Shown: positions 1 through 35,719 of the stretch, piece by piece | Layout: every line of letters starts with the position of its first letter | Position numbering within the stretch: the first letter of the stretch is position 1 | DNA from: Dictyostelium discoideum | Taxonomy: Eukaryota | Direction: 5' to 3' | DNA length: 64,000 nt | Assembly: GCA_000004695.1 (NCBI GenBank) | Contig: CM000153.2 | Location: 5,312,001 to 5,376,000 of the forward strand | The notes under the pieces: generated by a model | Database searches by the model: none | Seen by the model: the letters and a program-made list of their open reading frames with translations, nothing else | What the model was told of the DNA's origin: nothing | Program-made: the position numbers and the translations under genes

Positions 1-367
1 CATTTACTGATAAAACTAAGGCAATTTCAGCTGTGTACTCATTAACCATCCCATAACCCATATGTAGTGTTTTAATAACCAATAATATAATACGTCTTTC
101 ATTATCAATAATTTTTTCAGTTTCTGTCATTGAGTACTTATCAAGACCACTATTAAGGAAATGCATACCATTTAATCTAAATTGAATTGGCTTCCAACCT
201 GAAAATGGGAAAATACTTTCATCACCTGTAATCCACCATAGATCAGTCTCTGTATTATTAAATATCTTTGAATTTATTTCTTTATCTACATAATTTTTTT
301 TATTAAAAAATTGAATAAATGAATTGGCCACTTCATTTAGGTTTAAATTATTATTATTTTTATCCAT
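1..367 (-). CDS. NTF2/SnoaL-like small protein, paralog 1 of 3 (C-terminus cut by window start; ATG = complement of 365..367)
   Basis: rc translation [67 protein letters not shown]... is collinear with the 1189..1680 and 2330..2800 ORFs (FxQFFN, DQWWxSGDxNxYPF, GYDKYS motifs). Confidence 0.5.
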
Positions 368-809
368 TTTTTATATATATATATTTTATTAATTTTTTTT
401 TTTTTTTTTTATACAAACAAAAATAAAAATACAATACAAATTTAATTTTTTTTTTTTTATATCTAAAAATTCAAAAAAACAAAACAAAACAACATGAATA
501 CATTATGAATAACAAATAATTTATAATAATTAATATGTGTAAAAAGACAAAAATTTATGAACTTTTTTATTATTACAAATTTATAATATTAATATATTTA
601 TAGAAATATATTATTTACATACGTTAAATTAAATAATAGATATTACAAAAACAATTAGACTAAAAGTATTATATTTTATTAATTTTTTATGTATTTTTTT
701 TTTATTTTAAATAATAAAAGTTGTGTGGTGAATTTTAATTTTTTAGTTATTGGTTTTTTTATTAATCACTTTATAATTTATGAATATGAATTTTTAAGTT
801 TGTTTATAA

Positions 810-880
810 ATTAAATATGATATAGTTATTAAATACAACAACAAAATTAAATATGATATAGTTATTAAATACAACAGTAA
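810..880. repeat. Tandem duplication (2 x ~36 bp: attaaatatgatatagttattaaatacaaca..)
   Basis: Identical 31-bp core at 810..840 and 846..876, about 70-130 bp upstream of the tRNA gene. Confidence 0.8.
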
Positions 881-946
881 AAATTTAGTAATTTAAAACA
901 TTTCATTGAATCCTATTGTAGTAATAAAGTTATATATTTCATAAAG

Positions 947-1029
947 CCGGCTTTGGCGCAATGGTAGCGCGATTGACTGTAGTAACGAAAGTGATCAATC
1001 GGTTGCTAGTTCGAATCTGGCAAGCCGGA
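947..1029 (+). tRNA. tRNA-Tyr (anticodon GUA) with ~11-nt intron (about 984..994) 3' of the anticodon
   Basis: Acceptor stem CCGGCTT/AAGCCGG, D-arm GCGC-AATGGTA-GCGC (A-box TGGCGCAATGG), anticodon stem ATTGA/TCAAT with loop CTGTAGT (GTA), T-arm GCTAG-TTCGAAT-CTGGC (B-box), discriminator A, T6 terminator at 1031..1036. Confidence 0.85.
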
Positions 1030-1058
1030 CTTTTTTAAAACAAAAATAATATAGTCAC

Positions 1059-1072
1059 AGGTTCAATTCTCG
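1059..1072 (+). promoter_or_regulatory. External B-box (ex-B box) downstream of the tRNA gene
   Basis: aGGTTCAATTCTcg matches the B-box consensus GGTTCGANTCC and lies ~30 bp 3' of the tRNA, as is typical of Dictyostelium tRNA genes. Confidence 0.55.
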
Positions 1073-1188
1073 ATAAAAAATAACGATAATTCATATATGA
1101 ACCTATTAATTCCTTTAATAAACATTGATTAATATATAAAAAATTTAATTATTTTAAAAAAAATTTATTTGTTATTTAAATTGTTTTT

Positions 1189-1680
1189 TTAATCTCTTGA
1201 TGTTGGGGCAAAAGAATCTGGGAAAAAGTTTTTGAATATTCCTTGCAAAGATGGAGTACTTTGGGCCATTTTTAAATATGCACTTGGGTCAAAATATTCT
1301 TTAATTGCACAAATTTTACCATCTTCATTAACAGATATGATGAATGCATATTCATTAGAATATTCCTTTGTCATTCCGAATCCCATTGATACAGTTTTAC
1401 CAACAACTAACATAATTCTTCTTTCATGGTCAATAATTTGATCAATAAGAGTCATTGAATATTTGTCATAACCATTTTGAAGAGTTTGGAATCCATCTAA
1501 TCTTTTTTGAATAGAATCAGAACCAGCAAATGGGTAAACATTTTTATCACCAGATACCCACCATTGATCTGTTTCTGTGTTATTAAATAGTTTAGATTTA
1601 TTTTCATAATCTTTATTGTTAAAAAATTGAATAAATGCATTGGGAATTTCACATAGTGTTAGTTTTTTATTATTCTCCAT
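1189..1680 (-). CDS. NTF2/SnoaL-like small protein, paralog 2 of 3 (163 aa)
   Basis: Intact ORF; the C-terminal DGKICAIKEYFDPS-type motif is characteristic of the NTF2-like/SnoaL/ketosteroid-isomerase-like superfamily; family assignment is by eye only. Confidence 0.5.
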   Translation of the reverse strand: MENNKKLTLCEIPNAFIQFFNNKDYENKSKLFNNTETDQWWVSGDKNVYPFAGSDSIQKRLDGFQTLQNGYDKYSMTLIDQIIDHERRIMLVVGKTVSMGFGMTKEYSNEYAFIISVNEDGKICAIKEYFDPSAYLKMAQSTPSLQGIFKNFFPDSFAPTSRD

Positions 1681-2169
1681 TTTTTTTTATTTTAATTATT
1701 TCAATTTAGTTTCAATGAAAAAAAAAATAAAAAATTATAAACAATAAAAAAACTAGGTTATGCAAAAACAAATAAATTTAATTTAATTAATAATATTTAA
1801 TAAAAAATATTATTTTCTTATTATAAAAAATTATTAAAAAATAATATTTATAAAAATTTAAAATAAGTTTTTTTTATAATTAAAGATTTAAAAAATAAAT
1901 CTCTAATTAGGGGAATATTTATCTATTATTCAAAAAAAAAAAATTATTAATGTTTACTAATTAATTATAATATGCAATTTTAAAAAATTTGATTGTTGCA
2001 CCTAATTGTTTCATTATTTTTTCAGATCTATTAGGAAAAAGTTTATGGATTATTATAATTAAAAAAATAAATTATTATTTTATTTTTTCAAAAATTTGAA
2101 TTTTTATTGATATTTTTGGTAAAATAAATGATAGTGTTTGTTCATATAATAAAATGGAATATCAACATT

Positions 2170-2214
<45 letters not shown>

Positions 2215-2329
2215 GAGTTTATTTCCTAATACTTTTTTTTTTCCCACCGTCATAAATACCAATATAAAATAGTAGAATTTTATTATTTTTTTTAGACATT
2301 ATTTTAAAATATGATTTATTTTGTAAATA

Positions 2330-2800
2330 TTAAACTTTGTGATACAATTCTGTTAATTTTTTATTACTTAAAGAATACTTTAAAATTTCACTTGGATCAA
2401 AATATTCTTTAATTAAACAAATTTTTCCATCATTATTTACTGTTAAAAAGAAAGCATATTCATTTATGTAGATATTGTCTCCATAACCAACTGCACTTGT
2501 TCTTGCTTCCATAATTATTAAATTTTTTTCAATATTAAATGTTTTGTTTGATTCTGTAAATGAAAATTGATCATAACCATGAATTAATGGGATCATGTCG
2601 TTTAATCTTTTTTGAATTGGTTTCCAACCTGAAAATGGGTACATATTTTCATCTCCAGACATCCACCATTGGTCTGATTCTGGGTTATTAAAAATTTGGG
2701 ATATTAATTCTAAATTGTTAAATTCTCTATTATTAAAAAATTGAACAAATGAATCTGCAACTCTATTAAGTCTCAAAATGTTGTTTTCTTTACTTTCCAT
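2330..2800 (-). CDS. NTF2/SnoaL-like small protein, paralog 3 of 3 (156 aa)
   Basis: Intact ORF collinear with paralogs 1 and 2 ([48 protein letters not shown]). Confidence 0.5.
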   Translation of the reverse strand: MESKENNILRLNRVADSFVQFFNNREFNNLELISQIFNNPESDQWWMSGDENMYPFSGWKPIQKRLNDMIPLIHGYDQFSFTESNKTFNIEKNLIIMEARTSAVGYGDNIYINEYAFFLTVNNDGKICLIKEYFDPSEILKYSLSNKKLTELYHKV

Positions 2801-3240: not shown

Positions 3241-4431
3241 TCATTTATTATAATAATTATTTAGTGAGTTTATAAGCATTTCATTTGTAATTATATTTTC
3301 AATTGAATCAGATTTAGAACAATGATTTGATTCCGAAATTGATTTATTTGATAATAATAAAAGTTGTGAGAAAGAATTTTGATATCTTGTATATTCAATT
3401 TGAATTGGTAATAGCTTAATACAAGATTGGAAATTTGAAGATTGAATTAATGAAAACCATTCAATATATTCAACTTTTTCACAATTGAATTGTGATCCTA
3501 ATATATTATTAATATTCTCAATTTGTAATGGTTTTTCAACTCCAATATTGATAATATTAAAGCAACGATGTTGTTCTTGTATGTAGCTTTCAATATTAAT
3601 TAGACAATTTGAAATTGTTGTTGATAATGATGAAATTGGGGATGTTAAAAATGAGAATTCTATATTTGGATATGACTTGATTTCAATACATGATTGTAGA
3701 TATAATTGAACATAATCATTTGGATTTGAGAAAATTGAAGGGGTTCTTAATATAATTGTATTCAAATTGAATTTATCAGAAGCTTGTTTTAATAAATGTT
3801 CAGAGACTGCTTTAATTTGTAATGAACCATTTGAAAGTTGAGAAATTTTATCAACTGGTATTAAGGTTTCAAAATCTACAGTACTACTACTATTATTTCT
3901 ACCTAAATTAACATATAATGAAGATATCATTAAAATTTCTTTTATACCATTAGTGATTGAAAATTTAATAATTTCCTTTACAGTTTCGATTTTATATGAT
4001 TCATTTATATAGGTTGAATTTGTTGATTCTACTGCATCACTATCTTGATTAATAATTATTGAATTTACATTATTTGAAAGTATATTCAATTCATCAATTG
4101 GTAAACCAAAGTTATTCTTTGATGAATCACCAAAATAAACATGAATCTTTGAAATTTCAAATTCACTTAATTGTTCATAAAGTTTATATTGTTTAAAACT
4201 ATTTAAAATTTCATCATTTGAATTAATAGAATTAATTCTATCTTTTAATATATAATAAATATTTGAACAATTTGAATCTTTAACTAAATTAAATAATAAA
4301 TGAGTTCTTAAAATTCCAATTGAGCCAATTAATAAAATATTTTTGTTATTATTATCTAATTTTTGATGATGATTTTCATTGTTATTATTATTATTAATAT
4401 CTAATTTAATTTGATTCTCCCAAAATAGAAT
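3241..4431 (-). pseudogene. Detached 3' portion of the minus-strand PKS gene: C-terminal thioester-reductase (R, NAD-binding_4/SDR-type) release domain, separated from the ACP by a transposon insertion
   Basis: Reading frame open from 4431 to the stop at 3241; encodes ILFWENQIKLDINNNN..KNILLIGSIGILRTHLLFNL (TGxTGFLG-type Rossmann motif of terminal R domains). It joins in-frame to ...KYIAGGD at 7798 when the transposon plus one TSD copy is removed. Confidence 0.65.
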
Positions 4432-4436
4432 ATCAC

Positions 4437-4582
4437 TGTTGTAGGGAATTTTCCATAAAATTTCACTACAGTAGCGTAGTGAATTTTATTATTTAATTTC
4501 ACTACAGTAGCGTAGTGAAAAAAAAAAATCACTGACCTTAAATTTTTTTTTTTTTCAAAAAACAAATAAAGTTTATTAAATT
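4437..4582. repeat. Left terminal inverted repeat of the transposon (contains a twice-repeated near-palindromic TTCACTACAGTAGCGTAGTGAA motif)
   Basis: Reverse-complement match to 7652..7797 with only ~2 mismatches over 146 bp. Confidence 0.9.
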
Positions 4583-4639
4583 GAAATTTTATTTTTTGTT
4601 TTAATTATTATTTTATTTATTTTTATTATAATTATTGTT

Positions 4640-4672
<33 letters not shown>

Positions 4673-4813
4673 CAATTTTTTTTTTTTAAATTTTTTTCAA
4701 TTTTTATTTGTTTATTAAATTGTAATTTTATTTTTTGTTTTAATTATTATTTTATTTATTATTATTGTTAATTTTTTTTTTTTTTCAATTTTTTTTTTTT
4801 TAATTTATTTTTA

Positions 4814-6373
4814 TTAATTTATTTTTATTAACTCCCTGAGTTGTTCAATTGCTTGATTTACCATATCACTGTAAACACTGCACACAATTGAATTTTTTCT
4901 AGCTTTGTTACCTCTGGTGCATTTGATGTTTTTGCATTTTCCTTTGTATACAAAAAAGTCCAAATATAATTCGTTTTCTATTACAGTTTTTACACAATGT
5001 TGGTGAAATTGTTTTGATTTTAAGTGGAATGTTGGTAACATCATATTTGGATTTTTAACGATTAAAGCATCACCACTATTGACATATAGTACTTTGGGGG
5101 CTTTTTGGAGGAATTTAGTCAAATTTTCCTCTGAATCTAACTAATCTTCATTGCCATATTCAATGGATAAATTTTTTAAGAGTTGTATCGAATATATTAA
5201 TTAAGCGATCATTCTTTTTTTTTGAAATTTTTTTTTAATCAGATTTAGCAATTTTTTTTTTTTATCAAGTTTTTTCAATTTTTAATAAGTAATATTTTTT
5301 TTTATTTTTAATTATTTGTGTTAACAAATGTAATTTTTTTTTATTGATTTCAACACTTTGTTTTTATTTAATAATTTCCCCATACCCCCTTCTATTAATG
5401 CAACCAAATCAAGTTCTAATTTTTGTGTCCTTGTTGACTTTGTTTTTGCAACTTTTTTTGAAGGTATCACATTAACGATTTTTCCTATTGATGGTGATTT
5501 GGAAGGTGATTTAAATGGTGATTTAAATGGTGAATTGGAAGGTGATTTAAATGGTGAATTGGAAGGTGAAATGGATGGTGATTTGGAAGGTAATTTAAAT
5601 GGTGATTTGGAAGGTGATTTAAATGGTGATTTAAATGGTGAATTGGAAGGTGAAATGGATGTTGATTTGAGAGGTGATTTGGATGTTGATTTGAGAGGTG
5701 ATTTGGATGGTTTAGAATGTGATTTTAAAGGAGGTTTATTAACAATTGGTATCTTATGAGGACGGCCTCTGAGACGTTTAACAGTTGTTACTATACCACT
5801 ACCAGATTGTGGTATAGTATATGATGGTATTATTTGCACTTGAGGTATTGGTGGTACTATTTCTTTTAAATTCATATCCTTTCTCAAACAATTCATTAAA
5901 TTTGGCGCTGTTGGATTATTATTTAAAAATGGGAGTATTTCTTCTTGTTCCATTTCATTATTGAGTTTGTGTTGAAATGGATTATCGTTAATGATAGGTG
6001 GAATATTTGATGGATTGTTAAGAGCATCTTCCAAAACCCTAAATGGATCATTTTGTGTTACCAATTGATGCAAGTTGAAATTGGATAAATCCTTACCAAG
6101 ATTTTTAATAAACTGAACCAGAAATTCAATAACTTTCCCATCATTATTTAAATAAAGACCAGAAGTAAAAGAATCAATATCTTTTTGTATGTTTGGCGAT
6201 GTTCTAAAAATATCAACTGTTGATTGTTTATAAAGAACCAACTTGTTACCTCCTACAAAACCAGAGTATAAACCTTTTTTTTGAAGGCTATTGATTCCAT
6301 CTTCCAAAAATTCAAGTTTATAAAGTTGTTTAGTGTCTTCCTGTATTACCTTATGAATTTTACACAAAATCAA
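4814..6373 (-). CDS. Additional transposon-internal ORFs (350 aa with RGRP AT-hook and SPxK repeats; 102 aa Cys-rich)
   Basis: ORFs 5321..6373 and 4814..5122 lie on the same strand as the integrase fragments inside the TIR-bounded element; function unknown. Confidence 0.35.
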
Positions 6374-6443
6374 TATTTTCTATTAGAATTAAATATAAAA
6401 TTTGTTAATTATTACTGTTTCATATATTATTAATCTTTATGTT

Positions 6444-7287
6444 TTAATTACTTACATTATTTTTTTTAATTTCTAGAAAGAGTACAGTATCACCAACTTT
6501 CAATCCCTTTGGTGGTTTTGAATTCCATTGATTTTGGTAACTTGTGAGATTTTCAAGAATAATAGCTGTTATTTCTTCTTTTGAAACATCTGAAACACCA
6601 ATTGATTGAGAGTCTTGTTCTGATTGCACATTAATAAACAAAGGTACAATACCAACAGCTTGAGATGGTGTCATTTTAATTGTTCTTGTTTTTGTATTAT
6701 TGTAATCATACAAAGCTTGTTTTAATAGTTCAGAAAGAGACCTAGAAGTACCATCAAGAAAACTAAAATTTATTTATAAATGATTAATTAATAAACATAT
6801 CGATAATTTATATTGTTCAAAATATCATACTCTTGTTGTTTTAATTTTGAGATCCTCTCCTTGATAGTTCGATTCAATCTTTCTACCATACCTTGAGTTG
6901 TTGGTGTACGAGGAGCTCCATGTGCTGACTTGGAGCCTGGAAAAAGTTTTAGGAATTCTTTTTGGACTTTGTTTTTAAATTCACGTCCATTATCGCAGTG
7001 CCATACTTTCACAGAGTTTTAATATAAAAGTTACAAAACATCATATAAAAAATGATTGATACCAAACCTTTTATTCTATTTCGTTGGCAAATGTCACACG
7101 TATCTACTGCATCAGATACAAAAGAATACAATCCCATATTATAATATTTAGTCTTGTAGTTCCCATAGGTTGCATCTCTTCCTATATGACCTTTATGCAT
7201 TTCTTCCCAGAGTGATACCATTCTATAATCATTAATTACTTCTAAACACACTTCTTTTGATATATTTCTATCTCCGCCACAATTCAT
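6444..7287 (-). pseudogene. Transposon integrase-like ORF fragments (HHCC zinc finger, DDE core second Asp and Glu, C-terminal part) split over three frames
   Basis: 7287..7009 has HKGH...CDICQRN (HHCC). 7012..6788 has WHCDNGREF...HGAPRTPTTQGMVERLNRTIKE (second D and E of DD35E). No first catalytic Asp block is found between them, so the copy is probably deleted or degenerate. Confidence 0.7.
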
Positions 7288-7651
7288 GACTTTTTTTTCA
7301 ATTCTAAATAATTTTTCTTTTCTGTTTCTGTTTTTTATTGGTCAGAATTTAAAAAATGATTGTGTTATGGTAAGGAAAAATATTTACTCATCATGTAAAA
7401 ATTTATAATTTTTATGTTTAGTATTTTCAAAATTATTATCTTCAATAAATTTTAAATAATTTATCTTGTTTCATTTTGGGAAAATGAAAATAAAAAAAAA
7501 AAAAAAAAAAAAAAAAGTTTTGTTGGGGAAAAAAAAAAAAAATTTTGGCGCAAAAAAAAAAAAAAAAAATAAAATAAAAAAAAAAAAAAATAAAATAAAA
7601 AAAAAAAAATAAAAAAACTTAAATAGAACTAATAATCAAATAAAAGATAAT

Positions 7652-7797
7652 AATTTAATAAACTTTATTTGTTTTTTGAAAAAAAAAAAAATTTAGGGTC
7701 AGTGATTTTTTTTTTTCACTACGCTACTGTAGTGAAATTAAATAATAAAATTCACTACGCTACTGTAGTGAAATTTTATTGAAAATTCCCTACAACA
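7652..7797. repeat. Right terminal inverted repeat of the transposon
   Basis: Reverse complement of 4437..4582. Confidence 0.9.
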
Positions 7798-10700
7798 ATC
7801 ACCACCTGCAATATATTTATATTCAGTTTTATCATTTGGATCATTTTTTGTTGTTGTTGTTGTTTTTGCTGTTATTGGTAATAATTTTTCATCCATTTCT
7901 TTTTTCTTTTTATCTAATGAATCATTTATAATTTGATAAACCATACCAATTGAATTTGATTGAATTTGTTGAATTGTAATAAGATGTGGAGACCATTCTT
8001 TATCGACCCAATTCTTTAATTGTACTGTAATTAATGAATCAGCACCATAGTTTATCATTTTAATATTTGTATTAATTTTTGATGGATCAATTGAAAGAAG
8101 TTCAGAAACTTTGTTTAAAAATTTATTTTTTACATTTGTTGATGATGATGATTGATTGGTATCATTTTCCATTGATATTGAATTATCAACATTAATTGGA
8201 TTTAAAATGAAATCAAATTTTTGATGAAGTTTTTGTTTAAAACTTTTGAATAATGGCCAATTGAAATTATTAACAAATGCATTGGTTGGCATATTTGGAT
8301 TTTGAATTTGTAAATCTAAAGTACCCAATAATTGATTTGGTGATATTAATTCAACACCTTGACCACCTAGTACTGCTTCAACAAGTTTATGTCTTGAAAG
8401 ATAACCTCTATCACTTACACCACCAATGTTAATTGTAAATGATGGTAATCCAATTGATTTACGATATTGTGATAACGAATCCACTACACAACATGCTGAA
8501 ACATAACTACATTGATCAAATGAACCTAATACTGAAACTACTGATGATGCTAAAATGAAATTAATAATTTTCCAATCTCTTTTAATTGATAAATTATGTA
8601 AATTAACTGCACCAAACGTTTTTGCACTATGCGAAACATTTAAACTATTCATATCAATATCTTTAAGTTTTTTATTAATTTGTAAAGCTGCAAAATGAAA
8701 TATTGAATCAATATTTGTAATTGTTGGATTATCTTTTAAAACTTGATCAATTGTTTTATTAATTAAATTCCAATTACTAATATCACATTTTTTGAAATGA
8801 TATTTAATTTTATTGTTATTATTATTATTATTATTGTTGTTGTTATAATTCATTAAAAATTCTAATTCCCATTTTAATGATGATTTTGAAAGAATAATTA
8901 TATTTTCAACAGTTGAATTATATTTTGTTATCCATTTTAAAACTTCTAAAATTAAACCAGTTTGACCTGTAACCAATACATTTTTACCAAGATTTTTAAT
9001 TTTATAATCTGATTTTAATATTGAATAATCAATCATTGATTCTTTTTCAATTAATTTATCTATGATATCAGTATCATGTGAAATTACAATTTTACCAACA
9101 TGTTTTCTTTCTTTAATTGATTCAATTGATTTTTTAATATTTGAATTTGAAAATTCTGTAATTGGTATTAAAGCATTTAAAGTTTCATTTTCAATTGATT
9201 TTGAAATTGACTGTAATAATTTCTTAATTGTTGATTTTCCAACTTTTAAAATTTCAATACTATTATAACCAATATTATATCTATATCTACTATTATCAAT
9301 AAATTCATTTGGATTTAAATGAGTAGTTGTTAAATCTACAATTCTACCTTTTGGATTTAAACATTTAAAATTTGTATCCATAAATTCACTTGATAAAGTA
9401 TTAATAATTAAATCAACACCATGAGTTTCATAACCTAATTCAATTAATTTGTTTTTAATTTGTTTTTGATAATTTGTGTCTCTTGTTGAATAAATTCCAG
9501 TAATTAAATCACCATAGGTATTAATTAGATATTGTTTCTTTTCTTCTGATCCAACTGTAACAAATATTGGTGATGAATGATTATTTGATTTTAATATTTC
9601 CAATCCTGATAATCCAACACCACCAGATCCTGAATGAATTAATACTGATTCTTCATCTCTTAAATTACCAACATCATATAAACAATAAAGTGATGTTGAA
9701 TAAACTGCTGGAATTGAAGCTGCTTGAACATGTGTAATCTTTGATGGTTTATGACATGCTAATAATGAATCAATAATAATATGAGATGATGATGTTTCAT
9801 ATGCAATACCATAAACTTGATCACCAACTTTAAATTCTTTAGATGATTTAATTCCAACACGACTTACTACACCAGAAAAATCAAAACCAATACCAGCTTC
9901 ATTTACTTTTATCATTTCATTATATTTCAAATAATCTTTATAATTTATACCAGTTGCTTTAACTTTTACTTCAATTTCATATGGTTCTAAATCAATTTGT
10001 TTTGAATTTAATTGATATTCAAAATGTTCATCTAATTTTGAAACTAATTGATCTTGTTGTTTTGATAAATCATGATATGATTCAGATTTATAAGAATTCT
10101 TTAAATTTTTTAATTCTTTTTTATACATTTCAAAATAAACAGTACCACTATTTTTTATATAAAATTCTCTTTGAATATTATTTTTTGGATTAATTAAATA
10201 ATCAATGGTTTTGAATAAATCCAAATCATTTGTTAATGAATCTTTATCAAAATCCAATGTAAATAATTGTAAAGTTGGAATTTCATCAAAGTATCTTGCT
10301 GCACCTAAAACTGATGATGATAAATAATTACTTGATTGTGAATCACATGTAATTAAAACATGAGTACATTTTGATTTTAATTCATATAATTTTTGATTAA
10401 TTTGAACATATTCAAATGTTACTGATTTAAAGTTTTCCAATGTTAATTGTTCAATTGATTTAATAAAATAAATGATTGAATTATTTGTAATTGTTGTTGA
10501 TAATTTGTAAAATTCTTCAATTGTTGATACTTTTATTATTTTACAATTATTATAATGATTTTCAAATTTATTAATTAATTGTTGTTGTTGGAGTTGTTCA
10601 TCTTGATAACAATATAAAATTACTTGATCAAATGTGTTTATTGTTTTTGGTTGTAATTTTAATGATGGTTTTTGAGCTTGAATAATAATTGATTTAATAT

Positions 10701-10803
10701 CACTATCAGATATACTTGAAGATTTAATCATTATATCAGAATTGAAATTACAATTAACCAATAAGTTTTTCAATGATTCTTTATTATTTTCATTATTTAA
10801 TAG

Positions 10804-10868
<65 letters not shown>

Positions 10869-13800
10869 CATTTATTATTAAATAACCATTTGGTGTTAAA
10901 ATTTGATAAATTTGATTTAATGAATATTCAATATCTTTTGTTAAATTTGAAATATTTGAAACAATAATTAAATCATAATATGATGGATTTAATTTTTGTT
11001 TTTCTAATAATGAATTATCAACATCTAAACCTAATGAACGATAAAGAATACTTAAATAACCCTTATCTACTTTTGATAATTCTAATTTAGCATCTTTTAA
11101 AATTGATGAATTATTATCACTCCATGTATATTCAATATCAATTTCATAATGTGGATTTTCTTCGAGTAATGAATTGATTTCATTCAATAATAAAGTTGAT
11201 TTTGATAAATTATTACCACCAAATTCTAAAATTCTAAATTCCATCTTTCTATTAATTAATGGTTTAATAGTTTCTATAACAACATTTGGAATTAATAAAC
11301 CATCATCTACTTGATTATTTTGATAAATTGATTTAAATTCTAATGGTGATTGAATTTGTGAATCTTTTGATTGAAGATATGGTGTATAAATAAAATCAGA
11401 TGGAGTTTCAATTAATAATGGATCTTTAACTGGTGTTAATGATTTAACTACCAAGTTATCAACTTCAATGATAACAGTACCATCTTCTAACATAACAACG
11501 ATAGATGAAGAGAGTAAATCATCAGATGGAGATGATTTTAAAGTTGAATAAATAAAGATACTTGAATGTTCATCTCTATTTTTTGGAATATTTGAAGCAT
11601 AATATCTTAAACCTTCAACTTTATCTGTTACAATTTTACAATTCTTTTGAATGTATAGAATAACGGTACCATGGAAACAAGCATCAATGAGTGGACAATT
11701 GAAAAATGATTGTTCATCATGAAAGTTTTCAGGTAATTCTAAGGATATTTCAGTTAATGAACAATTATCACCAATATAACATTCAACTACTTTACTAAAA
11801 ATACCATAAAAGTTTGCACCCAATTGAGTTTTCATTAGTGAATAAAATTCATCCCATGGAATTGATGATAAATTACATTTTGTTTGTTTAATATCTTGAA
11901 TATCCAATTTTTGTTTTTCTTCATGATAATTATCATTACTATTTAAGTGGAAATTAGAATTTGAAGTATTTATCCATTGATTATTCATTTCATCTTTTAA
12001 ATGAAATTGTGCTCTATATTCACTTTTACCAGTTTGATAAACATTTGTTTGTAAACATTGCCCAATACCATCGGTTAATACAAATGGTACCTTAAATTCA
12101 ATTGAATTAATTGTTAAATCTTGATTTGGATATAATTTAAATATATTATCAATATAACCTGTTCCTGGGAAATAACATTTATCAGATACATTATGACCTT
12201 TTAAATATTTGAATGCATCTTTTCCAGTATCAATTATTGTTTGATATGATTTAATAAATGGATTTGAATCTTGCATTGAATTACCGAGAATTGAAATTGG
12301 TGGTCCAATTAAATTATTTTTATGTTCAATTGATTTATTTAACCAATAATGTTGATCATCCCATTGATATAATGGTAAATTAAAATTACTAATAGCCTCA
12401 ATATTGCTATTTATATTATTAAATTGACATTTAAAATTAATATCATAAGCATCATCACAAAATAATTGTGAAATTGATTTTTGAAATTCTTCAACATCAT
12501 TCTTTTTCTTGTGAAGTGTTGAATAAACTGATATTGATTCACCATTTCTAAAGTATTGTGATTGTTTTGGAATCATTTGTTTTAAATAAAATGATAATGT
12601 TGGATGTGGTGCAATTTCAATGAATACAATATTTGAACCGATTTGATTATCTTCAATATGTTTATATAAATTTGAAATTGTTTGAGTGAATGAAACTGGT
12701 TTTGAAATATTATCAAAGAAATATTCAGAATCAAAAATAGTTGATTCATTAAATAAATTTGATGTAACTGTTGAAAATGTTGGAATAACAGGTTGACTTG
12801 ATTGAATATTTAAATTTAAAATATCATCTTTAATTATATTTTGACTACTTGTATGAAAACTTGATAAACTTCCTAACATTGCTGAGAATATTTCTTTTTC
12901 TTTTAATTCTTTTGAAATTTCATTTAAAATTTGTTCATTACCTGCGATTACAATTGATGATGGTGAATTATAACATGCAATTTCAATAGTTGGGTAACGT
13001 GACATATAGTTAGTTTTATATTCATCTGAACTAATGTTAATTGATAACATTTTACCTGACCCATTTGTTCTTATTTGTAATGTTGATCTATGATAAATTA
13101 AATAACATAATTGGTCAATATCAATCATACCTGAACAATAAGCAGTTGTTACTTCACCAAGACTATGACCCAACATAAATGATGCTTTTATACCCCAATG
13201 TTTATAAAGTTCATATAATGATACTTGAATAATTACAGTTGATGGTTGTGCCATTGTTTGTTCATGAACTGAACATTTATCACTATCTTGAATTGCTCTT
13301 AATTTCTCTAAAATTGAATATCCAAAATAATTTTTCATTTTATTATCTAGCATATCCATCGAATTTCTAAATACTTTTTCATTTTTATATAATTCTAATG
13401 CCATTGTATTATATTGTGATCCTTGACCACAAAATACAAATACAGTTATTGGATTATTATTTTTATTTGTAATTGTAATATTTGAAGAAGTACTACTTGA
13501 AGTTTGATATTTAACTTGATTTTCAACATTATTAAAATCATTCCAATCTTTTGCAACAATTACTGATCTTTGATAAAGTGATGTTGATTTATTATAAATT
13601 TGATTTTTAACAAATTCTTCAAAACTATATTGTGATTCATATTCTTTATTTTCAATAATTAATGATTGATATTTTTTTAATGATTCAACTGAATTTGCTG
13701 AAAATGGAATTAAATAATTATTTATTTTTATATTATTATGATTATGATTATGATTATGATTATTATTATGATTATTTATATTATTATTTATAGTATTATA

Positions 13801-14489
13801 ATTAAATTGAGATAATACTAAACAACAATTTGAACCAGTTGCACCAAAATTATTAACAACCATTGAAGTATTTTTAAATTTATTAAATGGAATTGGTTCA
13901 GTTACAACTTTTAAATTCCATTCTTTAAATTTAATTGCTGGATTTGGTGTTTTAAAATGAATATTTGGTGCAAAACATTTGTTTTTATACATTAAACAAC
14001 ATTTGATTAATGAAGCAATACCAGAAGCAGCTTCACAATGACCAATATTTGATTTAAATGATCCAATTAATAATGGAGTATCAGTTGAACGAGTATCTTT
14101 AAAAACTTTTGAAATACCTTCAACTTCAATTGGATCACCAGTTGGTGTACCAGTGCCATGTGCTTCAACATAATCTATATCAGATGGTTTAACAGTTCCA
14201 TTGGTTGATTGAATTGCATTTTTTAAATTTTCAGATTGTGAAATTGATGATGGTGAATAGAAATTTGATTTATCAGAATAACCAATACCATCAACATTTG
14301 CACTTGCACCATTTATTGTACAATAAATTCTATTACCATCTTTAATTGCATCTTTTAAATTCTTTAAAACCACAACACCAATACATTCACTTCTTACATA
14401 ACCATCAGCTGATGCATCAAATGATTTACATCTACCATTTGATTTACTTAATATATTCAATGAAGAATATGCTTTAAAAAAGTAAGAGT
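7738..14489 (-). CDS. Type I iterative polyketide synthase, exon 2 (KS C-part, AT, DH, ER, KR, ACP); the reading frame now runs into the transposon TIR and stops at 7738
   Basis: Motifs GHSLGE (AT), HNVSDKCYFPG (DH), HSGSGGVG (ER), [10 protein letters not shown] (KR) and YGADSL (ACP). (CAA)26 poly-Gln tract at 10803..10867. The last 23 codons (DCCREFSIKFHYSSVVNFII*) are encoded by transposon TIR sequence. Confidence 0.85.
10803..10867 (-). repeat. (CAA)n microsatellite encoding a 26-Gln tract inside the minus-strand PKS
   Basis: (TTG)21 on the plus strand; the paralogous position in the plus-strand PKS reads NEQQPNNENNENNE. Confidence 0.9.
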
Positions 14490-14566
14490 CTAATAAAATT
14501 AAAAAATTTAATTAATAAATAAATATAAAGATAAAATTAAAAAAACTATTAAAAAAAAATACATAC

Positions 14567-15230
14567 CAAGTAATATATTAACACCACCAACAATTGACAT
14601 TTTTGATTTTTTATTTTTGATTGAATCATATCCTAATGCGATTGCATTTAAAGATGATGAACATGCAGTATCTAGAGTTATTGAATTACCATGAAGATCA
14701 TAACAATAGGAGATTCTATTTGAAATCGCATGATTTAAACTTGAGAATACATTTGATTTTACTTCATTTTTATTGATATTATGATAGTCACTTTCGGTAC
14801 AACCAATGAAAACCGAAGTATCTGTACCTTTGATTGAAATTGGATCAATTAATGAATCTTCTAATGCTTCCCATGTACATTTTAATAATAATCTTTGAAT
14901 TGGGTCAATGGTTGGTGCTTCATTTGGATTAATACCAAAAAAGAGTGGATCAAATGATTTAACTTCATCCAATGGTAATAGTCCTGAATAATTATTTGCA
15001 ATTTCATGATTTTTGAAAAAGTTATCATTGAATCTTTCTGATGTTTTCACTACACCATCGAAACCATTTATTAAATTATTCCATAATGTTTGAGGTGTAT
15101 TGTTTCTTTCATTTTCAATACTTCCACTTGGTAATCTAAAGCCAACACCAACAATTGCAACTAAATTTTCTTCAACATGTTTATCATCAACTTGTAAAAT
15201 TTCTGCTTTATTTATTTTATTTTGTTTCAT
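14567..15230 (-). CDS. Same PKS, exon 1 (KS N-terminus; ATG = complement of 15228..15230). Intron 14490..14566 (77 nt, GTATGT..AG, phase 1)
   Basis: [12 protein letters not shown]...[13 protein letters not shown]...[35 protein letters not shown] then GTATGT donor. Exon 2 resumes D-SYFFKAYSSLNILSKSNGRCKSFD, parallel to the plus-strand paralog. Confidence 0.75.
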
Positions 15231-18550: not shown

Positions 18551-19238
18551 ATGGATAATAGTTATTTAAATAATCCCCAATTTGATATTAATAATGGTAA
18601 TAAAGAAGTTACAGATGATGATAATAATAAAAATAATCAAGATAATTTAGTAGCAATTGTTGGTGTTGGTTTTAGATTACCAAGTGGTGAAAATGAAAGA
18701 AATAATACACCTCAAGCATTATGGAATAATTTAATAAATGGTTTCGATGGTGTAGTGAAAACATCGGAAAGATTCAATGATAACTTTTTCAAAAATCATG
18801 AAATAGCAAATAACTATTCAGGACTATTACCATTGGATGAAGTTAAATCATTTGATCCACTCTTTTTTGGTATTACTCCTAATGAAGCACAAACTATAGA
18901 TCCTCATCAAAGATTATTATTAAAATGTACATGGGAAGCATTAGAAGATTCATTAATTGATCCAATATCAATCAAAGGTACTGATACTTCTGTTTTCATT
19001 GGCTCTTCAACAAATGATTATCTTACATTAAATAGAAATGAAGTAAAATCAAATGTGTTTGGTAGTATGGCTCATTCAATTGCAAATAGAGTATCCTATT
19101 GTTATGATCTTCATGGTAATTCAATAACTCTAGATACTGCATGTTCATCATCTTTAAATGCAATCGCATTAGGATATGATTCAATCAAAAATAAAAAATC
19201 AAAAATGTCAATTGTTGGTGGTGTTAATATATTACTTG
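18551..19238 (+). CDS. Type I iterative PKS (plus strand), exon 1; intron 19239..19324 (GTATGT..AG, phase 1)
   Basis: [10 protein letters not shown]...[20 protein letters not shown]...GGVNILL then GTATGT donor; paralogous to minus-strand exon 1. Confidence 0.8.
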
Positions 19239-19324: not shown

Positions 19325-22300
19325 ACCCATATCCATATAAGGCATTCTCAATTTTGAATATGTTAAGTAAATCAAATGGTAGATGTAAATCATTTGATGC
19401 ATCAGCTGATGGATTTGTTAGAGGTGAATGTATTGGTGTTGTTATTTTAAAGAATTTAAAAGATGCAATTAAAGATGGTAATAGAATTTATTGTACAATA
19501 AATGGTGCAAGTGCAAATGTTGATGGTATTGGTTATTCTGATAAATCAAATTTCTATTCACCATCATCAATTTCACAATCTGAAAATTTAAAAAATGCAA
19601 TTCAATCAACCAATGGAACTGTTAAACCATCTGATATAGATTATGTTGAAGCACATGGCACTGGTACACCAAATGGTGATCCTGTAGAAACCGAAGGTAT
19701 ATCAAAAGTTTTTAAAGATACTCGTTCAACTGATACTCCATTATTAATTGGATCATTTAAATCAAATATTGGTCATTGTGAAGCTGCTTCTGGTATTGCT
19801 TCATTAATCAAATGTTGTTTAATGTATAAAAATAAATGTTTTGCACCAAATATTCATTTTAAAACACCAAATCCAGCAATTAAATTTAAAGAATGGAATT
19901 TAAAAGTTGTAACTGAACCAATTCCATTTAATGAAAATAAAAATACTTCAATGATTATTAATAACTTTGGTGTTACTGGTTCAAATTGTTGTTTAGTATT
20001 ATCTCAATTTAATAATACAAATAAACAAAAACAACAAATGAAAACAAAAATAAATAATTATTTAATTCCATTTTCAGCAAATTCAGTTGAATCATTAAAA
20101 AAATATCAATCATTAATTATAAATAGTAAAGAAAATGAATTAAAATATAGTTTTGAAGAATTTGTTAAAAACCAAGTATTTATTAAACCAACATCACTTT
20201 ATCAAAGATCTGTAATTGTTGCAAAAGATTGGAATGATTTTAATAATGTTGAAAATCAAGTTAAATATCAAACTTCAAGTAGTACTTCTTCAAATATTAC
20301 AATTACAAATAAAAATAATAATCCAATAACTGTATTTGTATTTTGTGGTCAAGGATCACAATATAATACAATGGCATTAGAATTATATAAAAATGAAAAA
20401 GTATTTAGAAATTCGATGGATATGCTAGATAATAAAATGAAAAATTATTTTGGATATTCAATTTTAGAGAAATTAAGAGCAATTCAAGATAGTGATAAAC
20501 GTTCAGTTCATGAACAAACAATGGCACAACCATCAACTGTAATTATTCAAGTATCATTATATGAACTTTATAAACATTGGGGTATAAAAGCATCATTTAT
20601 GTTGGGTCATAGTCTTGGTGAAGTAACAACTGCTTATTGTTCAGGTATGATTGATATTGACCAATTATGTTATTTAATTTATCATAGATCAACATTACAA
20701 ATAAGAACAAATGGGTTAGGTAAAATGTTATCAATTAACATTAGTTCAGATGAATATAAAACTAACTATATGTCACGTTATCCAACCATTGAAATTGCAT
20801 GTTATAATTCACCATCATCAATTGTAATCGCAGGTAATGAACAAATTTTAAATGAAATTTCAAAAGAATTAAAAGAAAAAGAAATTTTCTCAGCAATGTT
20901 AGGAAGTTTATCAAGTTTTCATACAAGTAGTCAAAATATAATTAAAGATGATATTTTAAATTTAAATATCCAATCAAGTCAACCTGTTATTCCAACATTT
21001 TCAACAGTTACATCAAATTTATTTAATGAATCAACTATTTTTGATTCTGAATATTTCTTTGATAATATTTCAAAACCAGTTTCATTCACTCAAACAATTT
21101 CAAATTTATATAAACATATTGAAGATAATCAAATCGGTTCAAATATTGTATTCATTGAAATTGCACCACATCCAACATTATCATTTTATTTAAAACAAAT
21201 GATTCCAAAACAATCACAATACTTTAGAAATGGTGAATCAATATCAGTTTATTCAACACTTCATAAGAAAAAGAATGATGTTGAAGAATTTCAAAAATCA
21301 ATTTCACAATTATTTTGTGATGATGCTTATGATATTAATTTTAAATGTCAATTTAATAATATAAATAGCAATATTGAGGCTATTAGTAATTTTAATTTAC
21401 CATTATATCAATGGGATGATCAACATTATTGGTTAAATAAATCAATTGAACATAAAAATAATTTAATTGGACCACCAATTTCAATTCTCGGTAATTCAAT
21501 GCAAGATTCAAATCCATTTATTAAATCATATCAAACAATAATTGATACTGGAAAAGATGCATTCAAATATTTAAAAGGTCATAATGTATCTGATAAATGT
21601 TATTTCCCAGGTGCAGGTTATATTGATAATCTTTTAAAATTATATCCAAATCAAGATTTAACAATTAATTCAATTGAATTTAAAACACCTTTAATATTAT
21701 CAGATGATAATGGTCAATTTTTACAAACAAATGTTTATCAAACTGGTAAAAGTGATTATAGAGCTCAATTTCATTTTAAAGATAATAGAACAAATGTATG
21801 GGTTCAAACATGTACTGCTAATTTTCAATTATATAATAATGGTAAAGTTGATAAATTAAATTTAGAAGAAATTAAATCAACAAAATGTAATTTATCATCA
21901 ATACCATGGGATAAATTTTATCCACATATAAAAAATAGAACTGGTTTAAACTATAAAGACAAATTTCAAAATACAATTGAATGCTATCTTGGTGATAATT
22001 GTTCATTAACTGAAATATCATTAGAATTACCAGAAAACTTTCATGATCAAGAATCATTTTTTAATACACCAATTTTAGATATTTGCTTCCATGGTTCAAT
22101 TGTTTTAATTAAGGATAATTGTAAACTTGTTTTGGATAAAATTGATGGTTTTAAATTATATACATCAAACATTCCAAAAAATAGATTTGATCATTTAAGT
22201 ATTTTTGTATATACAACTATGAAATCAACAAAATCAAATTCATACAATTCAACATACACAGTAATGTTAGAAGATGGTACTGTTATACTTGAAGTTGAAA

Positions 22301-25300
22301 ATTTAATATGTACATCATTAACACCAGTTAAAGATCCATTATTAATTGAAATTCCAACTGATATGTATTATACTCCATATCTTCAATCAAAAGATTCACA
22401 AATTCAATCACCATTAGAATTTAAATCAATTTATCAAAACAATCAAGATAATGATAGCTTATTAATTCCAAATGTTGTTTTAGAAACAATTAAACCATTA
22501 ATTAATGAGCAAATGGAATTTAGAATTTTAGAATTTGGTGGTAATAATTTATCAAATTCAACTTTATTATTGAATTCAATCAATTCATTACTTGAAGAAA
22601 ATCCACATTATGAAATTGATATTGAATATACATGGAGTGATAATAATTCATCAATTTTAAAAGATGCTAAATTAGAATTATCAAAAGTAGATAAAGGTTA
22701 TTTAAGTATTCTTTATCGTTCATTAGGTTTAGATGTTGATAATTCATTATTAGAAAAACAAAAATTAAATCCATCATATTATGATTTAATTATTGTTTCA
22801 AATATTTCAAATTTAACAAAAGATATTAAATATTCATTAAATCAAATTTATCAAATTTTAACACCAAATGGTAATTTAATAATAAATGAACAACAACCAA
22901 ACAATGAAAATAATGAAAATAATGAAGATTCATTGAAAAACTTATTGGTTAATTGTAATTTCAATTCTGATATAATGATGAAATCTTCAAGTGTATCTGA
23001 TAGTGATATTAAATCAATTATTATTCAAGCTCAAAAACCATCATTAAAATTACAACCAAAAACAATAAACACTTTTGATCAAGTCATTTTATATTGTAAT
23101 CAAGATGAACAATTCCAACAACAACAACAATTAATTAATAAATTTGAAAGTCATTATAATAATAATTGTAAAATAATAAAAGTATCAACAATTGAAGAAT
23201 TTTATAAATTATCAACAACAATTACAAATAATTCAATCATTTATTTTATAAAATCAATTGAACAATTAACATTGGAAAACTTTAAATCAATAACATTTGA
23301 ATATGTTCAAATTAATCAAAAATTATATGAATTTAAATCAAAATGTACTCACGTTTTAATTACATATGATTCTCAATCAAGTAATTATTTATCATCATCA
23401 ATTTTAGGTGCAGCAAGATACTTTGATGAAATTCCAACTTTACAATTATTTACATTTGATTTTGATAAAGATTCATTAATTAATTTAGACATTTCGGTTA
23501 TAGATCATTTGATAGATCCAAAACAAAATACATTGATTGAATTCTTTATTAAAAAAAATGGTAAAGTTTATTTTGAAAGATTTAAAAAAGGTTTAAAGAA
23601 AAATTCTTTTAAATCAGAATCATATCATCAAATTACAAATGAACAAGAAATTTTAATTTCAAAATTAGATGAAAATTTAGATTATCAATTAAAATCAAAA
23701 GATTCAATTTTAAAACCATATGATATTGAAGTAGAAATTAAAGCAACTGGTTTAAATTATAAAGATTATTTAGTATATAGTGGTTTAATAAAATTAAAAG
23801 GTGATAGTGTTGATTTTGGTCTTGATTTTTCTGGTAGAGTTAGTCGTGTTGGAATTAAATCATCAAAAGAATTTAAAGTTGGTGATGAAGTTTATGGTAT
23901 TGGACAATCAACATCATCATCTCATATTATTATTGATTCAATGCATGCATGTCATAAACCATCAAAGATTACACATGTTCAAGCAGCTTCAATTCCAGCA
24001 GTTTATGCAACTTCAATTCATTCTTTATATAATATTGGTAATTTAAGAGAAGGAGAATCAATTTTAATTCATTCAGGATCTGGTGGTGTTGGATTATCAG
24101 CATTGGAAATATTAAAATCAAATAATCATTCATCTCCAATATTTGTTACAGTTGGATCAGAAGAAAAGAAACAATATCTAATTAATACCTATGGTAATTT
24201 AATCACTGGAATTTATTCAACAAGAGATACAAATTATCAAAAACAAATTAAAAACAAATTAATTGAATTAGGTTATGAAACTCATGGTGTTGATTTAATT
24301 ATTAATACTTTATCAAGTGAATTTATGGATAGCAATTTCAAATGTTTAAATCCAGAAGGTAGAATTGTAGATTTAACAATTACTCATTTAAATCCAAATG
24401 AATTTATTGATAATAATAAATTTAAATATAATTTTGGTTATCATAATATTGAATTATATTATTGTGAAAAGCCAACAATTAAGAAACTATTACAGTCAAT
24501 TTCAAAATCAATTGAAAATAATACATTAAATTATTTAATTCCAATTACAGAATTTTCAAATTCAAATATTAAAAAAGCAATTGAATACATTAATGAACGT
24601 AAACATGTTGGAAAAATTGTAATTTCTCATGATACAGATATTACTAATAAATTAATTGAAAATCAACCTAAAATTGATTACTCTTTATTGAAATCAAATT
24701 ATAAAATTAAAAATCTTGGTAAAAATGTATTGGTTACAGGTCAAACTGGTCTAATTTTAGATATTATAAATTGGATTATGAAATATAATTCAACTGTTGA
24801 AAATATAATTATTCTTTCAAAATCATCAATGAAATGGGAAATGGAATTTTTAATTAACAACAATAAGACAAAAATTAAATTCTATTATAAAAGATGTGAT
24901 ATTGGTGGTGATTCAGATTCAATTAATAAAACATTTGATAAATTGTTTACAGAAAATCCAACAATTACAAACATTGATTCAATATTCCATTTTGCAGTTG
25001 TACAAATTACAAGAAAAGTAAAAGATATTGATATGAAATCATTAAATATTTCACATGATGCAAAAACAATTGGTGCAATTAATTTACATAATCAATCAAT
25101 TAAAAGAGATTGGAAATTAAGTAATTTCATATTAGCATCTTCAATTCTTTCAAAAGTTGGTTCATTAGATCAATGTGGATATGTTTCAGCATGTTGTGTA
25201 CTTGACTCATTTTCAAAATATCGTTTATCTATTGGATTACCTGCATTATCAATTAATATTGGTGCTATGGGTGGAAGTGGAATGGTTGCAAGAAGTGAAC

Positions 25301-25779
25301 TTGTTGAAACTGTACTTAATGGTCAAGGTTATAATTTAACCTCAACAAACCAACTATTAGGTACAATTGATTTATTAATTCAAAATCCTGGTCAAGAATC
25401 AAATAATTTAATGGTTGGTAATTTTAATTTCCCAGTTTTTAATAATTTCAAACAAAAGATTCATCAAAAATTTGATTTTATTTTTAATGCTCTTGATTCA
25501 AACTCTGAAAATGGTGATGGTAGTAATATCAAAAATTCAACAAATATTAAAGATAAATTTTTAAACAAAGTATCAGAATTTCTTTCAATTGATTCATCTA
25601 AAATTAATAATGATATTAAATTAATGAATTATGGTGCTGATTCATTAATTACTGTTCAATTAAAGAATTGGGTTGATAAAGAATGGTCTCCAAATTTAAT
25701 TACAATTCATCAAATTCAATCAAATTCAATTGGTATGGTTTGTCAAATTATAAATGATAATTTTGAAAAAAAAAAATAA
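19325..25779 (+). CDS. Type I iterative PKS (plus strand), exon 2: KS-AT-DH-ER-KR-ACP, ending 26 residues after the ACP with no release domain (total 2380 aa)
   Basis: Same motif order as the minus-strand PKS. Ends ...LMNYGADSLITVQLKNWVDKEWSPNLITIHQIQSNSIGMVCQIINDNFEKKK*. Confidence 0.85.
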
Positions 25780-29429: not shown

Positions 29430-29790
29430 ATGGGAAAAAATATTATAATTTTATTTATATTATTATATATATTTTCAATTATTAGACATAGCCACCAACA
29501 ATATACAAATAATGAAATCGATTTATATGTAAATAAAAATGGAAATGATACAAGTGGAGATGGTACAATAAATTCACCATTTTTCAGTATATGTAAAATA
29601 ATAAATGTAATAAATCAAACAATATCCTCTTCTTCTTTTTCTTCTTTTTCTTCTTCTTCTTCTTCTTCATCATCATCATCATCATACCAATCGATAATTG
29701 TTAATATTGGTATTGGTAATTATTCATGCTTGGGATGCCCAATTTATCAATTAAATAATTTTAATGAAATTATATTTCAACAATATTATT

Positions 29791-29861
<71 letters not shown>

Positions 29862-30876
29862 GAAGTTATAATTTTAGATTTAAATTTAATAGTATTAAAT
29901 TCAAAAATTATAATTAACGGTATTCAATTTTTATATGAAAATAATAAAGAAGAAAAGATTAATTTTTTAATTAAAGATGAATCAGAATTTATAATGAATA
30001 ATTCAAATATTTTTATAAAATCACATTATTTATCGTTTTATTTTCAAAATAATTCAAAATTAATTATTTTTAATGAATCAAAATTTCAACAAAGTGAATC
30101 TCTTCAAAGTGATTTATATTTTGAAAGTTCAATAATAATAGTTAATAATTCAATATTAGATAATCATTTATTTTTATTTAGTAATGATCAATATATTAAA
30201 ACAATTCAATTTTTAATTAGTGATTCAACATTTTATAATTCACATATTTATATAACTGGTAATTCAAAAGTTAATTTTTTAAATTCAAATTTTAGTGGTA
30301 CAATTGATTTATCATTATTTGGTTATAATTCAATTAATAATTATAATAATAATAATAATAAAGATTCAAATAATAATAATGAATTTAATATAATTAATTG
30401 TAATTTAAAATTTAAAAGAATTATTGGAAATATTGATGGTAAAAATATATTTCAAATTGGAGGTGGTATAATTTTTAAAATTATAAATTCATTTTTAGAA
30501 ATTGAAAAAGAAGAACAATTTATTGATCAAGCGATAATTGGAAATGAAAATTCAATGATTATATTAGATAATGTTGGATTTAGTGGATTCAATGTTTATG
30601 GATCATTTTTAATATTAAATCAAAGTAAATTAATAATGAATCAAATATCAGGTATTGATATTAAAGCCAAATCATTCATTAGAGTTTATTCAAATAGTGT
30701 TTTAGAATTAAATTCAATACATTTATTAAATTTTCAAGATTTTGAATTTATAGGTGAAGGAATTGAAAAGAATTTTGCATTAATTGATATTAGATCATCA
30801 TGTAATCTAACCATTTCAAATGTTAATTTTCATTTTAATGGTTTTCCAATTTTAATGAATAATGGTGGTGGTGAAT

Positions 30877-30934
<58 letters not shown>

Positions 30935-33932: not shown

Positions 33933-33986
<54 letters not shown>

Positions 33987-34714: not shown

Positions 34715-34746
<32 letters not shown>

Positions 34747-35673: not shown

Positions 35674-35719
<46 letters not shown>

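Follow-up and report, generated by a model that had tools for sequence, protein, structure and literature searches.

A tandem trio of NTF2/SnoaL-like genes beside polyketide synthase genes in Dictyostelium discoideum, with a possible role in polyketide tailoring

Three small, intron-less genes, all read from the minus strand, follow one another head to tail at the start of a 64,000-nucleotide stretch of Dictyostelium discoideum DNA (GenBank assembly GCA_000004695.1, contig CM000153.2, forward-strand positions 5,312,001 to 5,376,000; ~20% G+C). The whole stretch is hereafter called the window, and the genes, with their products, are called A, B and C. They adjoin a polyketide synthase (PKS) gene and are co-expressed with it, with a second PKS gene and with further biosynthetic genes in the stalk. 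Structure prediction and profile comparisons place their products in the NTF2-like superfamily, close to fungal enzymes that tailor polyketides and meroterpenoids, and a similar role may apply here.

Three UPF0523 genes in tandem

Paralog A (DDB_G0287089, UPF0523 protein A; 1..367, minus strand) was identified through its translation and a match to the AX4 protein. It begins with an ATG at 367 and reads down to base 1, so that 122 of its 162 codons fall in the window and the C-terminal ~40 residues lie beyond the window edge. The full-length protein, taken from other assemblies, is SGKIFSIKEYLDP. Paralog B (DDB_G0287091, UPF0523 protein B, staE; 1189..1680, minus strand) is a single-exon gene of 163 aa, and paralog C (DDB_G0287093, UPF0523 protein C; 2330..2800, minus strand), the copy nearest the PKS, is a single-exon gene of 156 aa. 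Both were identified as open reading frames (ORFs) and by exact look-up. The UniProt entries of this family are Q54KU9, Q54KU8 and Q54KU7, matched exactly by B and C and by A over the part within the window.

The existence of the three genes and their paralogy are certain. Pairwise BLASTP identities are 45% for B and C (E 4e-47), 55% for A and B (E 2e-48) and 50% for A and C (E 1e-39), far outside chance. The blocks F(I/V)QFFN(N/K) and DQWWxSGDxNxYPF are found in the trio, the second in a variant form in A, and DGKICxIKEYFDP is found in B and C, with SGKIF in place of DGKIC in A. A first-pass annotation made from the letters alone had called three same-strand paralogs here with ~45–55% identity and these sequence blocks. 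The ORFs, the identities and the blocks are all as it described, and the strand, which it had left unstated, is minus. D. citrinum and several assemblies of the D. discoideum group have orthologs of A, B and C in an unchanged order. Ratios of nonsynonymous to synonymous substitution rates between AX4 and D. citrinum (Nei-Gojobori) are 0.12 for A and 0.18 for both B and C, and each copy is therefore under purifying selection.

Because the genes are annotated and one of them is a named marker, the trio is not a new-gene discovery. DDB_G0287091 is called staE in three reports (PMC6198379, PMC9117722, PMC8808424). It entered the literature as a stalk marker with the cell-type RNA-seq and promoter-lacZ constructs of Kin et al. 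2018. A later report moved it to the class “all mature soma”, gave its conservation as “group 4”, its function as “unknown” and its domains as “none”, and described synergistic induction by DIF-1 and c-di-GMP (PMC9117722); a further study used it as a stalk read-out (PMC8808424). UPF0523, the neighbouring locus tags and the P450 gene cyp513B1 find no mention in the main text of the searchable literature. Measured against that literature, the fold assignment, the link to a clade of fungal tailoring enzymes and the cluster context described below are new, and the placement of an NTF2/SnoaL-like protein inside a block of PKS, N-acetyltransferase and P450 genes (pks24/pks25–nat4–cyp513B1) offers a concrete hypothesis for this marker.

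Between A and B, on the opposite strand, lies an intron-containing tRNA gene (947..1029, plus strand; Rfam 57.8 bits). Its anticodon, GUA, marks it as a tRNA-Tyr, and 14 nt are inserted in the anticodon loop; ARAGORN gave no type.

An NTF2/SnoaL-like fold and its closest enzymes

The fold of B was modelled with AlphaFold2 from an 11-sequence family alignment (mean predicted local distance difference test score 82.8, predicted template modelling score 0.75). The model runs helix-helix-strand-strand-helix, followed by four long strands and by short C-terminal helices at lower confidence. Three N-terminal helices against a strongly curved antiparallel sheet of 5–6 strands form the cone typical of NTF2-like proteins, and the fold of B conforms to this description. 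A Foldseek search of the PDB with this model returned NTF2-like proteins only (E 1e-7 to 1e-5, TM-score 0.55–0.77), led by the AtoB aldolase, NsrQ, Trt14, PrhC, AusH, TerC, Dcr3 and BvnE and followed by epoxide hydrolases of the limonene-1,2-epoxide hydrolase (LEH) type.

Profile searches lead to the same superfamily. When 1.84 billion representatives were searched exhaustively with a hidden Markov model (HMM), 23 proteins scored at E <= 1e-3. D. purpureum (1e-35) and Heterostelium album (2e-20) contribute a single homolog apiece, each automatically named “SnoaL-like domain-containing protein”. The remaining matches are fungal where a source is named and otherwise come from sequencing or metagenome assemblies; they are 107–276 aa long, mostly 130–143 aa. 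Of the eight non-dictyostelid matches scanned against Pfam, seven pass the gathering score of SnoaL_2 (PF12680, 27 bits) and one, P0028, falls just short with 22.9 bits. The threshold is not reached by A, B or C, and the H. album ortholog scores 17.7 bits. In a non-circular hhalign test, a profile built from UPF0523 proteins only was compared with a profile of 17 SnoaL_2 proteins; the two align over 131 columns with 99.6% probability (E 5.5e-24). A search of PDB sequences with a single sequence gave sub-threshold matches only (AtoB, 0.23), pointing in the same direction. Among solved proteins, the UPF0523-only profile ranks Dcr3 closest by sequence (E 1.7e-4) and AtoB next (0.018). The HMM search, the hhalign comparison and the Dcr3 match thus each tie the trio to recognised NTF2-like proteins at significant scores.

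The NTF2/SnoaL-like fold and homology of the trio are, on these grounds, very well supported. The first-pass annotation had predicted a cone-shaped NTF2-like fold, and this reading survives, with AlphaFold2 and Foldseek on one side and hhalign on the other in agreement. It had also proposed profile searches, of which the exhaustive HMM search reaches SnoaL_2 proteins and the direct Pfam and NCBIfam scans return no meaningful match.

The trio and SnoaL_2 (e.g. PDB 3fgy) are homologous by profile-profile comparison and have the motifs WW.xG...P.aG and DGKI..i.EY.D in common. The trio differs from SnoaL_2 in its N-terminal FxQFFNN helix and in a C-terminal helical extension of ~25 residues; the closest SnoaL_2 members are functionally uncharacterised. 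Fungal NTF2-like tailoring enzymes are the closest structural neighbours with detectable sequence similarity. These are Trt14, PrhC, AusH and BvnE together with NsrQ, Dcr3 and AtoB, which form “cluster 2” of Ma et al. 2024 (PMC11485096) and have a profile-detectable relationship to the trio. Dcr3 is an isomerase of fungal dimeric xanthone biosynthesis. Both groups are cofactor-free proteins of ~140–160 aa whose genes adjoin PKS genes, and both carry the motif G..Y.NE..F....N..GKI..I.EY.D, including a Tyr aligned to AtoB Tyr114 and a Glu aligned to AtoB Glu136. Identity between them is only 14–20%, and the trio is amoebozoan rather than fungal, consists of three tandem paralogs and adjoins a highly reducing PKS with a reductase-like end domain, whereas the fungal enzymes belong to meroterpenoid and xanthone pathways.

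Across 20 sequences spanning the detectable family, G53, Y107, E128 and D131 (B numbering) are invariant and W40, G44, N109, G121 and K122 are near-invariant. An HMMER alignment places Y107 on the Tyr of “VYHNEF” and E128 on the Glu of “AEYVD” in AtoB. With an offset of +10 applied to the AtoB numbering, which makes all three published AtoB residues coincide, Y107 corresponds to Tyr114 and E128 to Glu136. In AtoB, Arg59 and Tyr114 are the catalytic acid-base pair and Glu136 binds the substrate, and fungal NTF2-like enzymes generally begin their varied reactions with an acid-base pair (PMC11485096). R60, invariant in the family, is a possible counterpart of AtoB Arg59, which lies outside the aligned stretch.

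Two further enzyme groups were compared with the trio and rejected as its family. The SnoaL/AknH polyketide cyclases (PF07366) have the NTF2-like cone and close polyketide rings by cofactor-free acid/base chemistry, the type of job proposed here for the trio. They serve type II aromatic PKSs, whereas the partner of the trio would be an iterative type I highly reducing PKS. Membership of this family was rejected because A, B and C have no PF07366 match, and SnoaL-type chains (SnoL, AclR) give non-significant E-values even with a broad profile. In the comparison with limonene-1,2-epoxide hydrolase, MonB and Lsd19, the LEH residues Arg99/Asp101 and Tyr53/Asn55 are not conserved in the trio; of the LEH set Asp101-Arg99-Asp132 plus Tyr53/Asn55, only the Asp132 position is acidic (E128).

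The PKS neighbourhood and its expression in the stalk

On the same strand, C begins 440 bp downstream of a thioester-reductase-like (R-like) domain (3241..4431, minus strand; TIGR01746 7e-13, PF07993 2e-17) that has no start codon of its own and is the C-terminal domain of pks24. The body of pks24 (DDB_G0287119, KS-AT-DH-(MT)-ER-KR-ACP; 7798..15230, minus strand) was delineated from Pfam domains, splice reconstruction and gene order, with exon 1 at 15230..14567 and exon 2 from 14489. A run of 22 glutamines is present in pks24. That the PKS adjoining the trio is pks24 follows by elimination and gene order; because the truncated 2471-aa model has no exact protein match, the name rests on elimination and on the order of the table in Kin et al. 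2018. Since the trio is on the minus strand, “downstream of the PKS” holds in the sense of transcription.

The gene for arylamine N-acetyltransferase 4, nat4 (DDB_G0287121; 16050..16886, minus strand; PF00797 2e-18 and exact look-up), sits between pks24 and the divergently oriented pks25 (DDB_G0287095; 18551..25779, plus strand). The latter encodes a 2380-aa protein, KS-AT-DH-ER-KR-ACP by Pfam domains, in two exons (18551..19238 and 19325..25779), and after splicing matches XP_637427.1/Q54KU3 exactly. It stops at the ACP, without an R domain. Identity between the two synthases is 81% overall and 98–99% at residues 616–1015, from AT to DH, which suggests recent gene conversion between the paralogs. 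Past A, in other assemblies, come cyp513B1 and then a gene for a short-chain dehydrogenase/reductase (SDR)/epimerase, both outside the window.

Between the ACP and the R-like domain, pks24 is interrupted by a 3361-bp cut-and-paste DNA transposon of the Tdd-4/5 type (Ginger2/Tdd; 4437..7797, integrase ORFs on the minus strand), recognised from its sequence, terminal inverted repeats and target-site duplication. The inverted repeats are ~145 bp with 2 mismatches, and the 5-bp duplication GTGAT stands at 4432..4436 and 7798..7802; a duplication of this length is typical of TDD-4/5, and the features of Dictyostelium Tdd-4/Tdd-5 agree (PMC2836005). The element contains integrase H2C2/rve fragments (Integrase_H2C2 3.8e-9) and a low-complexity SPSK-repeat ORF. 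The latter (350 aa; 5321..6373, minus strand) combines an AT-hook-like RGRPHK with a long repeat of the SPSKSPFK type, is mirrored on the opposite strand by a GDLEGDLNG-repeat ORF, and is probably a transposon accessory protein. The reading frame of pks24 continues into the transposon and stops at 7738.

When the transposon and one copy of the duplication are removed in silico, an unbroken KS...ACP-R ORF of 2848 aa results. A D. discoideum assembly that is 99.3–99.9% identical (GCA_054883475.1) has the exact empty site, with the PKS called at 2848 aa, and neither a wild strain nor D. citrinum carries the element; across these three assemblies the intact PKS measures 2829–2848 aa. Because the site is empty in a near-identical assembly and the element is absent from the other two, the insertion reads, from these sequence comparisons, as very recent and strain-specific. 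In the sequenced strain, AX4, pks24 should accordingly be translated without its release domain, a practical warning when a strain is chosen for metabolite work. The trio had been annotated as lying immediately downstream of the R-domain end of the PKS; this holds for the R-like domain itself, whereas the body of the PKS is split from that domain by the transposon.

Aligned to the reductase domain of MxaA (4u7w), the R-like domain has Ser in place of the catalytic Tyr (NGSLQIK against GGYAQSK), and its nucleotide-binding GATGFLG reads GSIGILR. Both substitutions are also present in D. citrinum and the wild strain. Judged from these alignments, the pattern suggests a conserved domain, possibly one for non-redox release or cyclisation, and its chemistry bears on the substrate that would reach the downstream NTF2-like proteins.

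Expression was examined in supplement 5 of Kin et al. 2018 (RNA-seq, in transcripts per million, TPM). Eight consecutive entries stand among its stalk-specific genes, namely DDB_G0287085 (the SDR), cyp513B1, A, B, C, pks25, pks24 and nat4, while flanking entries are sparse in that list. Seven of the eight rise together at 20–24 h; the SDR is the exception, being up from 8 h. Messages of the trio are ~0 until 12–16 h and then reach, at 20 h, 24 h and in the mature stalk, 134, 185 and 879 TPM for A, 77, 214 and 5651 TPM for B, and 26, 39 and 1640 TPM for C. The corresponding values are 134, 145 and 751 TPM for cyp513B1, 71, 56 and 13 TPM for pks25, 48, 36 and 3 TPM for pks24, and 22, 44 and 90 TPM for nat4. 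This co-expression is the strongest evidence that the trio is part of a co-regulated biosynthetic block. Adjacency to a core synthase and co-expression coincide over the eight genes, and membership of the trio in a co-regulated pks24/pks25 cluster is well supported.

D. citrinum (PKS of 2829 aa) and a divergent wild D. discoideum (2843 aa) share the order NAT-PKS-C-B-A-P450, and linkage to the PKS is kept in D. citrinum and three other assemblies of the D. discoideum group. Comparison with other dictyostelids, another check that had been proposed for the locus, came out divided: D. citrinum keeps the order, whereas the homologs in D. purpureum and H. album are not PKS-linked. Since these single homologs have no PKS neighbour, the family is older than its PKS association and the linkage is young. 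On this comparison of genomes, the triplication and the PKS linkage appear to have arisen within, or just before, the D. discoideum/citrinum lineage.

Polyketide tailoring and competing explanations

Dictyostelium has ~40 PKS genes and very few known products. To our knowledge, there are hardly any reports from Amoebozoa of multi-gene clusters equipped with dedicated tailoring enzymes. With the trio and its neighbours, the orphan synthases pks24 and pks25 gain a candidate set of tailoring genes. That the trio encodes post-PKS tailoring enzymes for the product of the adjoining synthase is the best explanation on offer and, in our judgement, an evenly balanced proposition. The first-pass annotation had suggested such a role, cyclisation or isomerisation for example, from position; the suggestion gains support from the co-expression, the gene order in D. 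citrinum and wild D. discoideum and the kinship with Dcr3 and AtoB, and stays unproven by computation.

Beyond the paralogy, purifying selection, fold, SnoaL_2 homology, co-expression and local synteny shown above, the enzymatic activity, the substrate and the catalytic residues are inferred as follows. A, B and C would be small cytosolic cone proteins, NTF2-like and related to SnoaL_2, that act within a stalk-specific co-regulated cluster made up of the SDR gene DDB_G0287085, cyp513B1, A, B/staE, C, pks24, nat4 and pks25. In each case the cone-shaped pocket would take up a hydrophobic intermediate released by pks24, pks25 or both, and cofactor-free acid/base chemistry there would effect a cyclisation, an aldol-type ring closure, an isomerisation or a rearrangement. 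Catalysis would fall to Tyr107 and Glu128, both invariant in the family, with possible assistance from Asp131 and Arg60; this chemistry is proposed because Tyr107 and Glu128 align to Tyr114 and Glu136 of AtoB and because an acid-base pair is general among fungal NTF2-like enzymes. The three diverged copies may handle successive or different intermediates.

Several observations weigh against a tailoring role. A direct Pfam scan finds no family at E <= 1 for A or C and spurious matches only for B, and a direct NCBIfam scan of the three gives no meaningful match. The copies also differ where the chemistry is proposed to occur: A has lost the near-invariant Asn109 and Tyr111 (YTAEI for YSNEY), and B carries Ala at a position that is Glu in A, C and AtoB (Glu143). 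By these substitutions the three copies have diverged at candidate active-site positions. In the sequenced strain the R-like domain is detached from the PKS and lacks the catalytic Tyr. No PKS lies within 10 kb of the one homolog that D. purpureum and H. album each possess, and since D. discoideum and D. citrinum are close relatives, the order conserved between them is weak evidence. Messages of the trio exceed those of pks24/pks25 by 100- to 1000-fold in the mature stalk, which is unusual for a purely catalytic partner. Knockouts of pks24 and pks25 were published in 2025 with product candidates at the level of mass spectrometry only, a cyclic polyprenylated polyketide and a chlorinated aromatic amine (PMC12625978).

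The excess of trio mRNA keeps alive a rather unlikely alternative, in which the proteins are abundant, non-catalytic binders that hold a lipophilic stalk metabolite stoichiometrically in the NTF2 cone for transport, sequestration or self-protection; the ligand could possibly be the polyketide, a DIF-type compound or a sterol. Such a role fits a staE level of 5651 TPM in the stalk against 3–13 TPM for the PKS genes, as it does the loss of conserved motif residues in A. Many of the NTF2-fold matches purely bind, designed steroid and drug binders among them, and the superfamily includes catalytic as well as non-catalytic roles (PMC11485096). Yet Y107, E128 and D131, which are predicted to line the pocket, are invariant in very distant relatives, two of them aligning with functional residues of AtoB; the nearest relatives by sequence are enzymes; and in dying stalk cells protein stoichiometry is poorly reflected by the amount of mRNA. 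It is also unlikely that the proteins are NTF2-like enzymes whose substrate has nothing to do with pks24/pks25, their adjacency being the outcome of tandem duplication in a late stalk-specific chromatin domain. An ancestral single-copy gene away from any PKS in D. purpureum and H. album is consistent with this, as are the later peak of the trio (24 h and mature stalk, against 20 h for pks24/pks25) and the resemblance of staE, with its DIF-1 and c-di-GMP synergy, to other mature-soma genes. What argues against coincidence is the co-induction of eight adjacent genes of classic biosynthetic functions (two PKS, NAT, P450, SDR and three NTF2-like) without that of their flanks, together with structural neighbours that are overwhelmingly tailoring enzymes of polyketides and meroterpenoids.

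A special case of tailoring, in which a P450-made epoxide on the polyketide is opened by the trio, acting as LEH-type epoxide hydrolases or cyclases, is improbable. E128 does align with the catalytic Asp132 of LEH (KEYFD against RDYFD), and a P450 gene adjoins A. The Asp101-Arg99 pair, by contrast, is not matched by any conserved residues (A and B read ERRIML, C reads EKNLII), LEH Tyr53 is Trp40 in the trio, and the UPF0523-only profile does not reach LEH. The mechanism was rejected because neither the Arg99/Asp101 pair nor Tyr53 is conserved.

Polyketide tailoring by the trio could also be part of a larger picture, which we offer tentatively. The locus might be a true multi-gene cluster of a social amoeba, switched on by DIF-1 and c-di-GMP in terminal stalk/soma cells only, in which the trio, staE included, would act as successive cofactor-free cyclases or isomerases on the pks24/pks25 chain. 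The resulting cyclic polyketide would serve stalk maturation or defence of the fruiting body, and the product may have been missed, or seen as shunts, because of the AX4 transposon.

Beyond the cluster genes, a 596-aa ORF at 47561..49351 (plus strand) has a weak KR-domain match (E 1.3e-6), and several long ORFs lack a Pfam match, among them 29430..38180 (plus strand) and 43378..45627 (minus strand).

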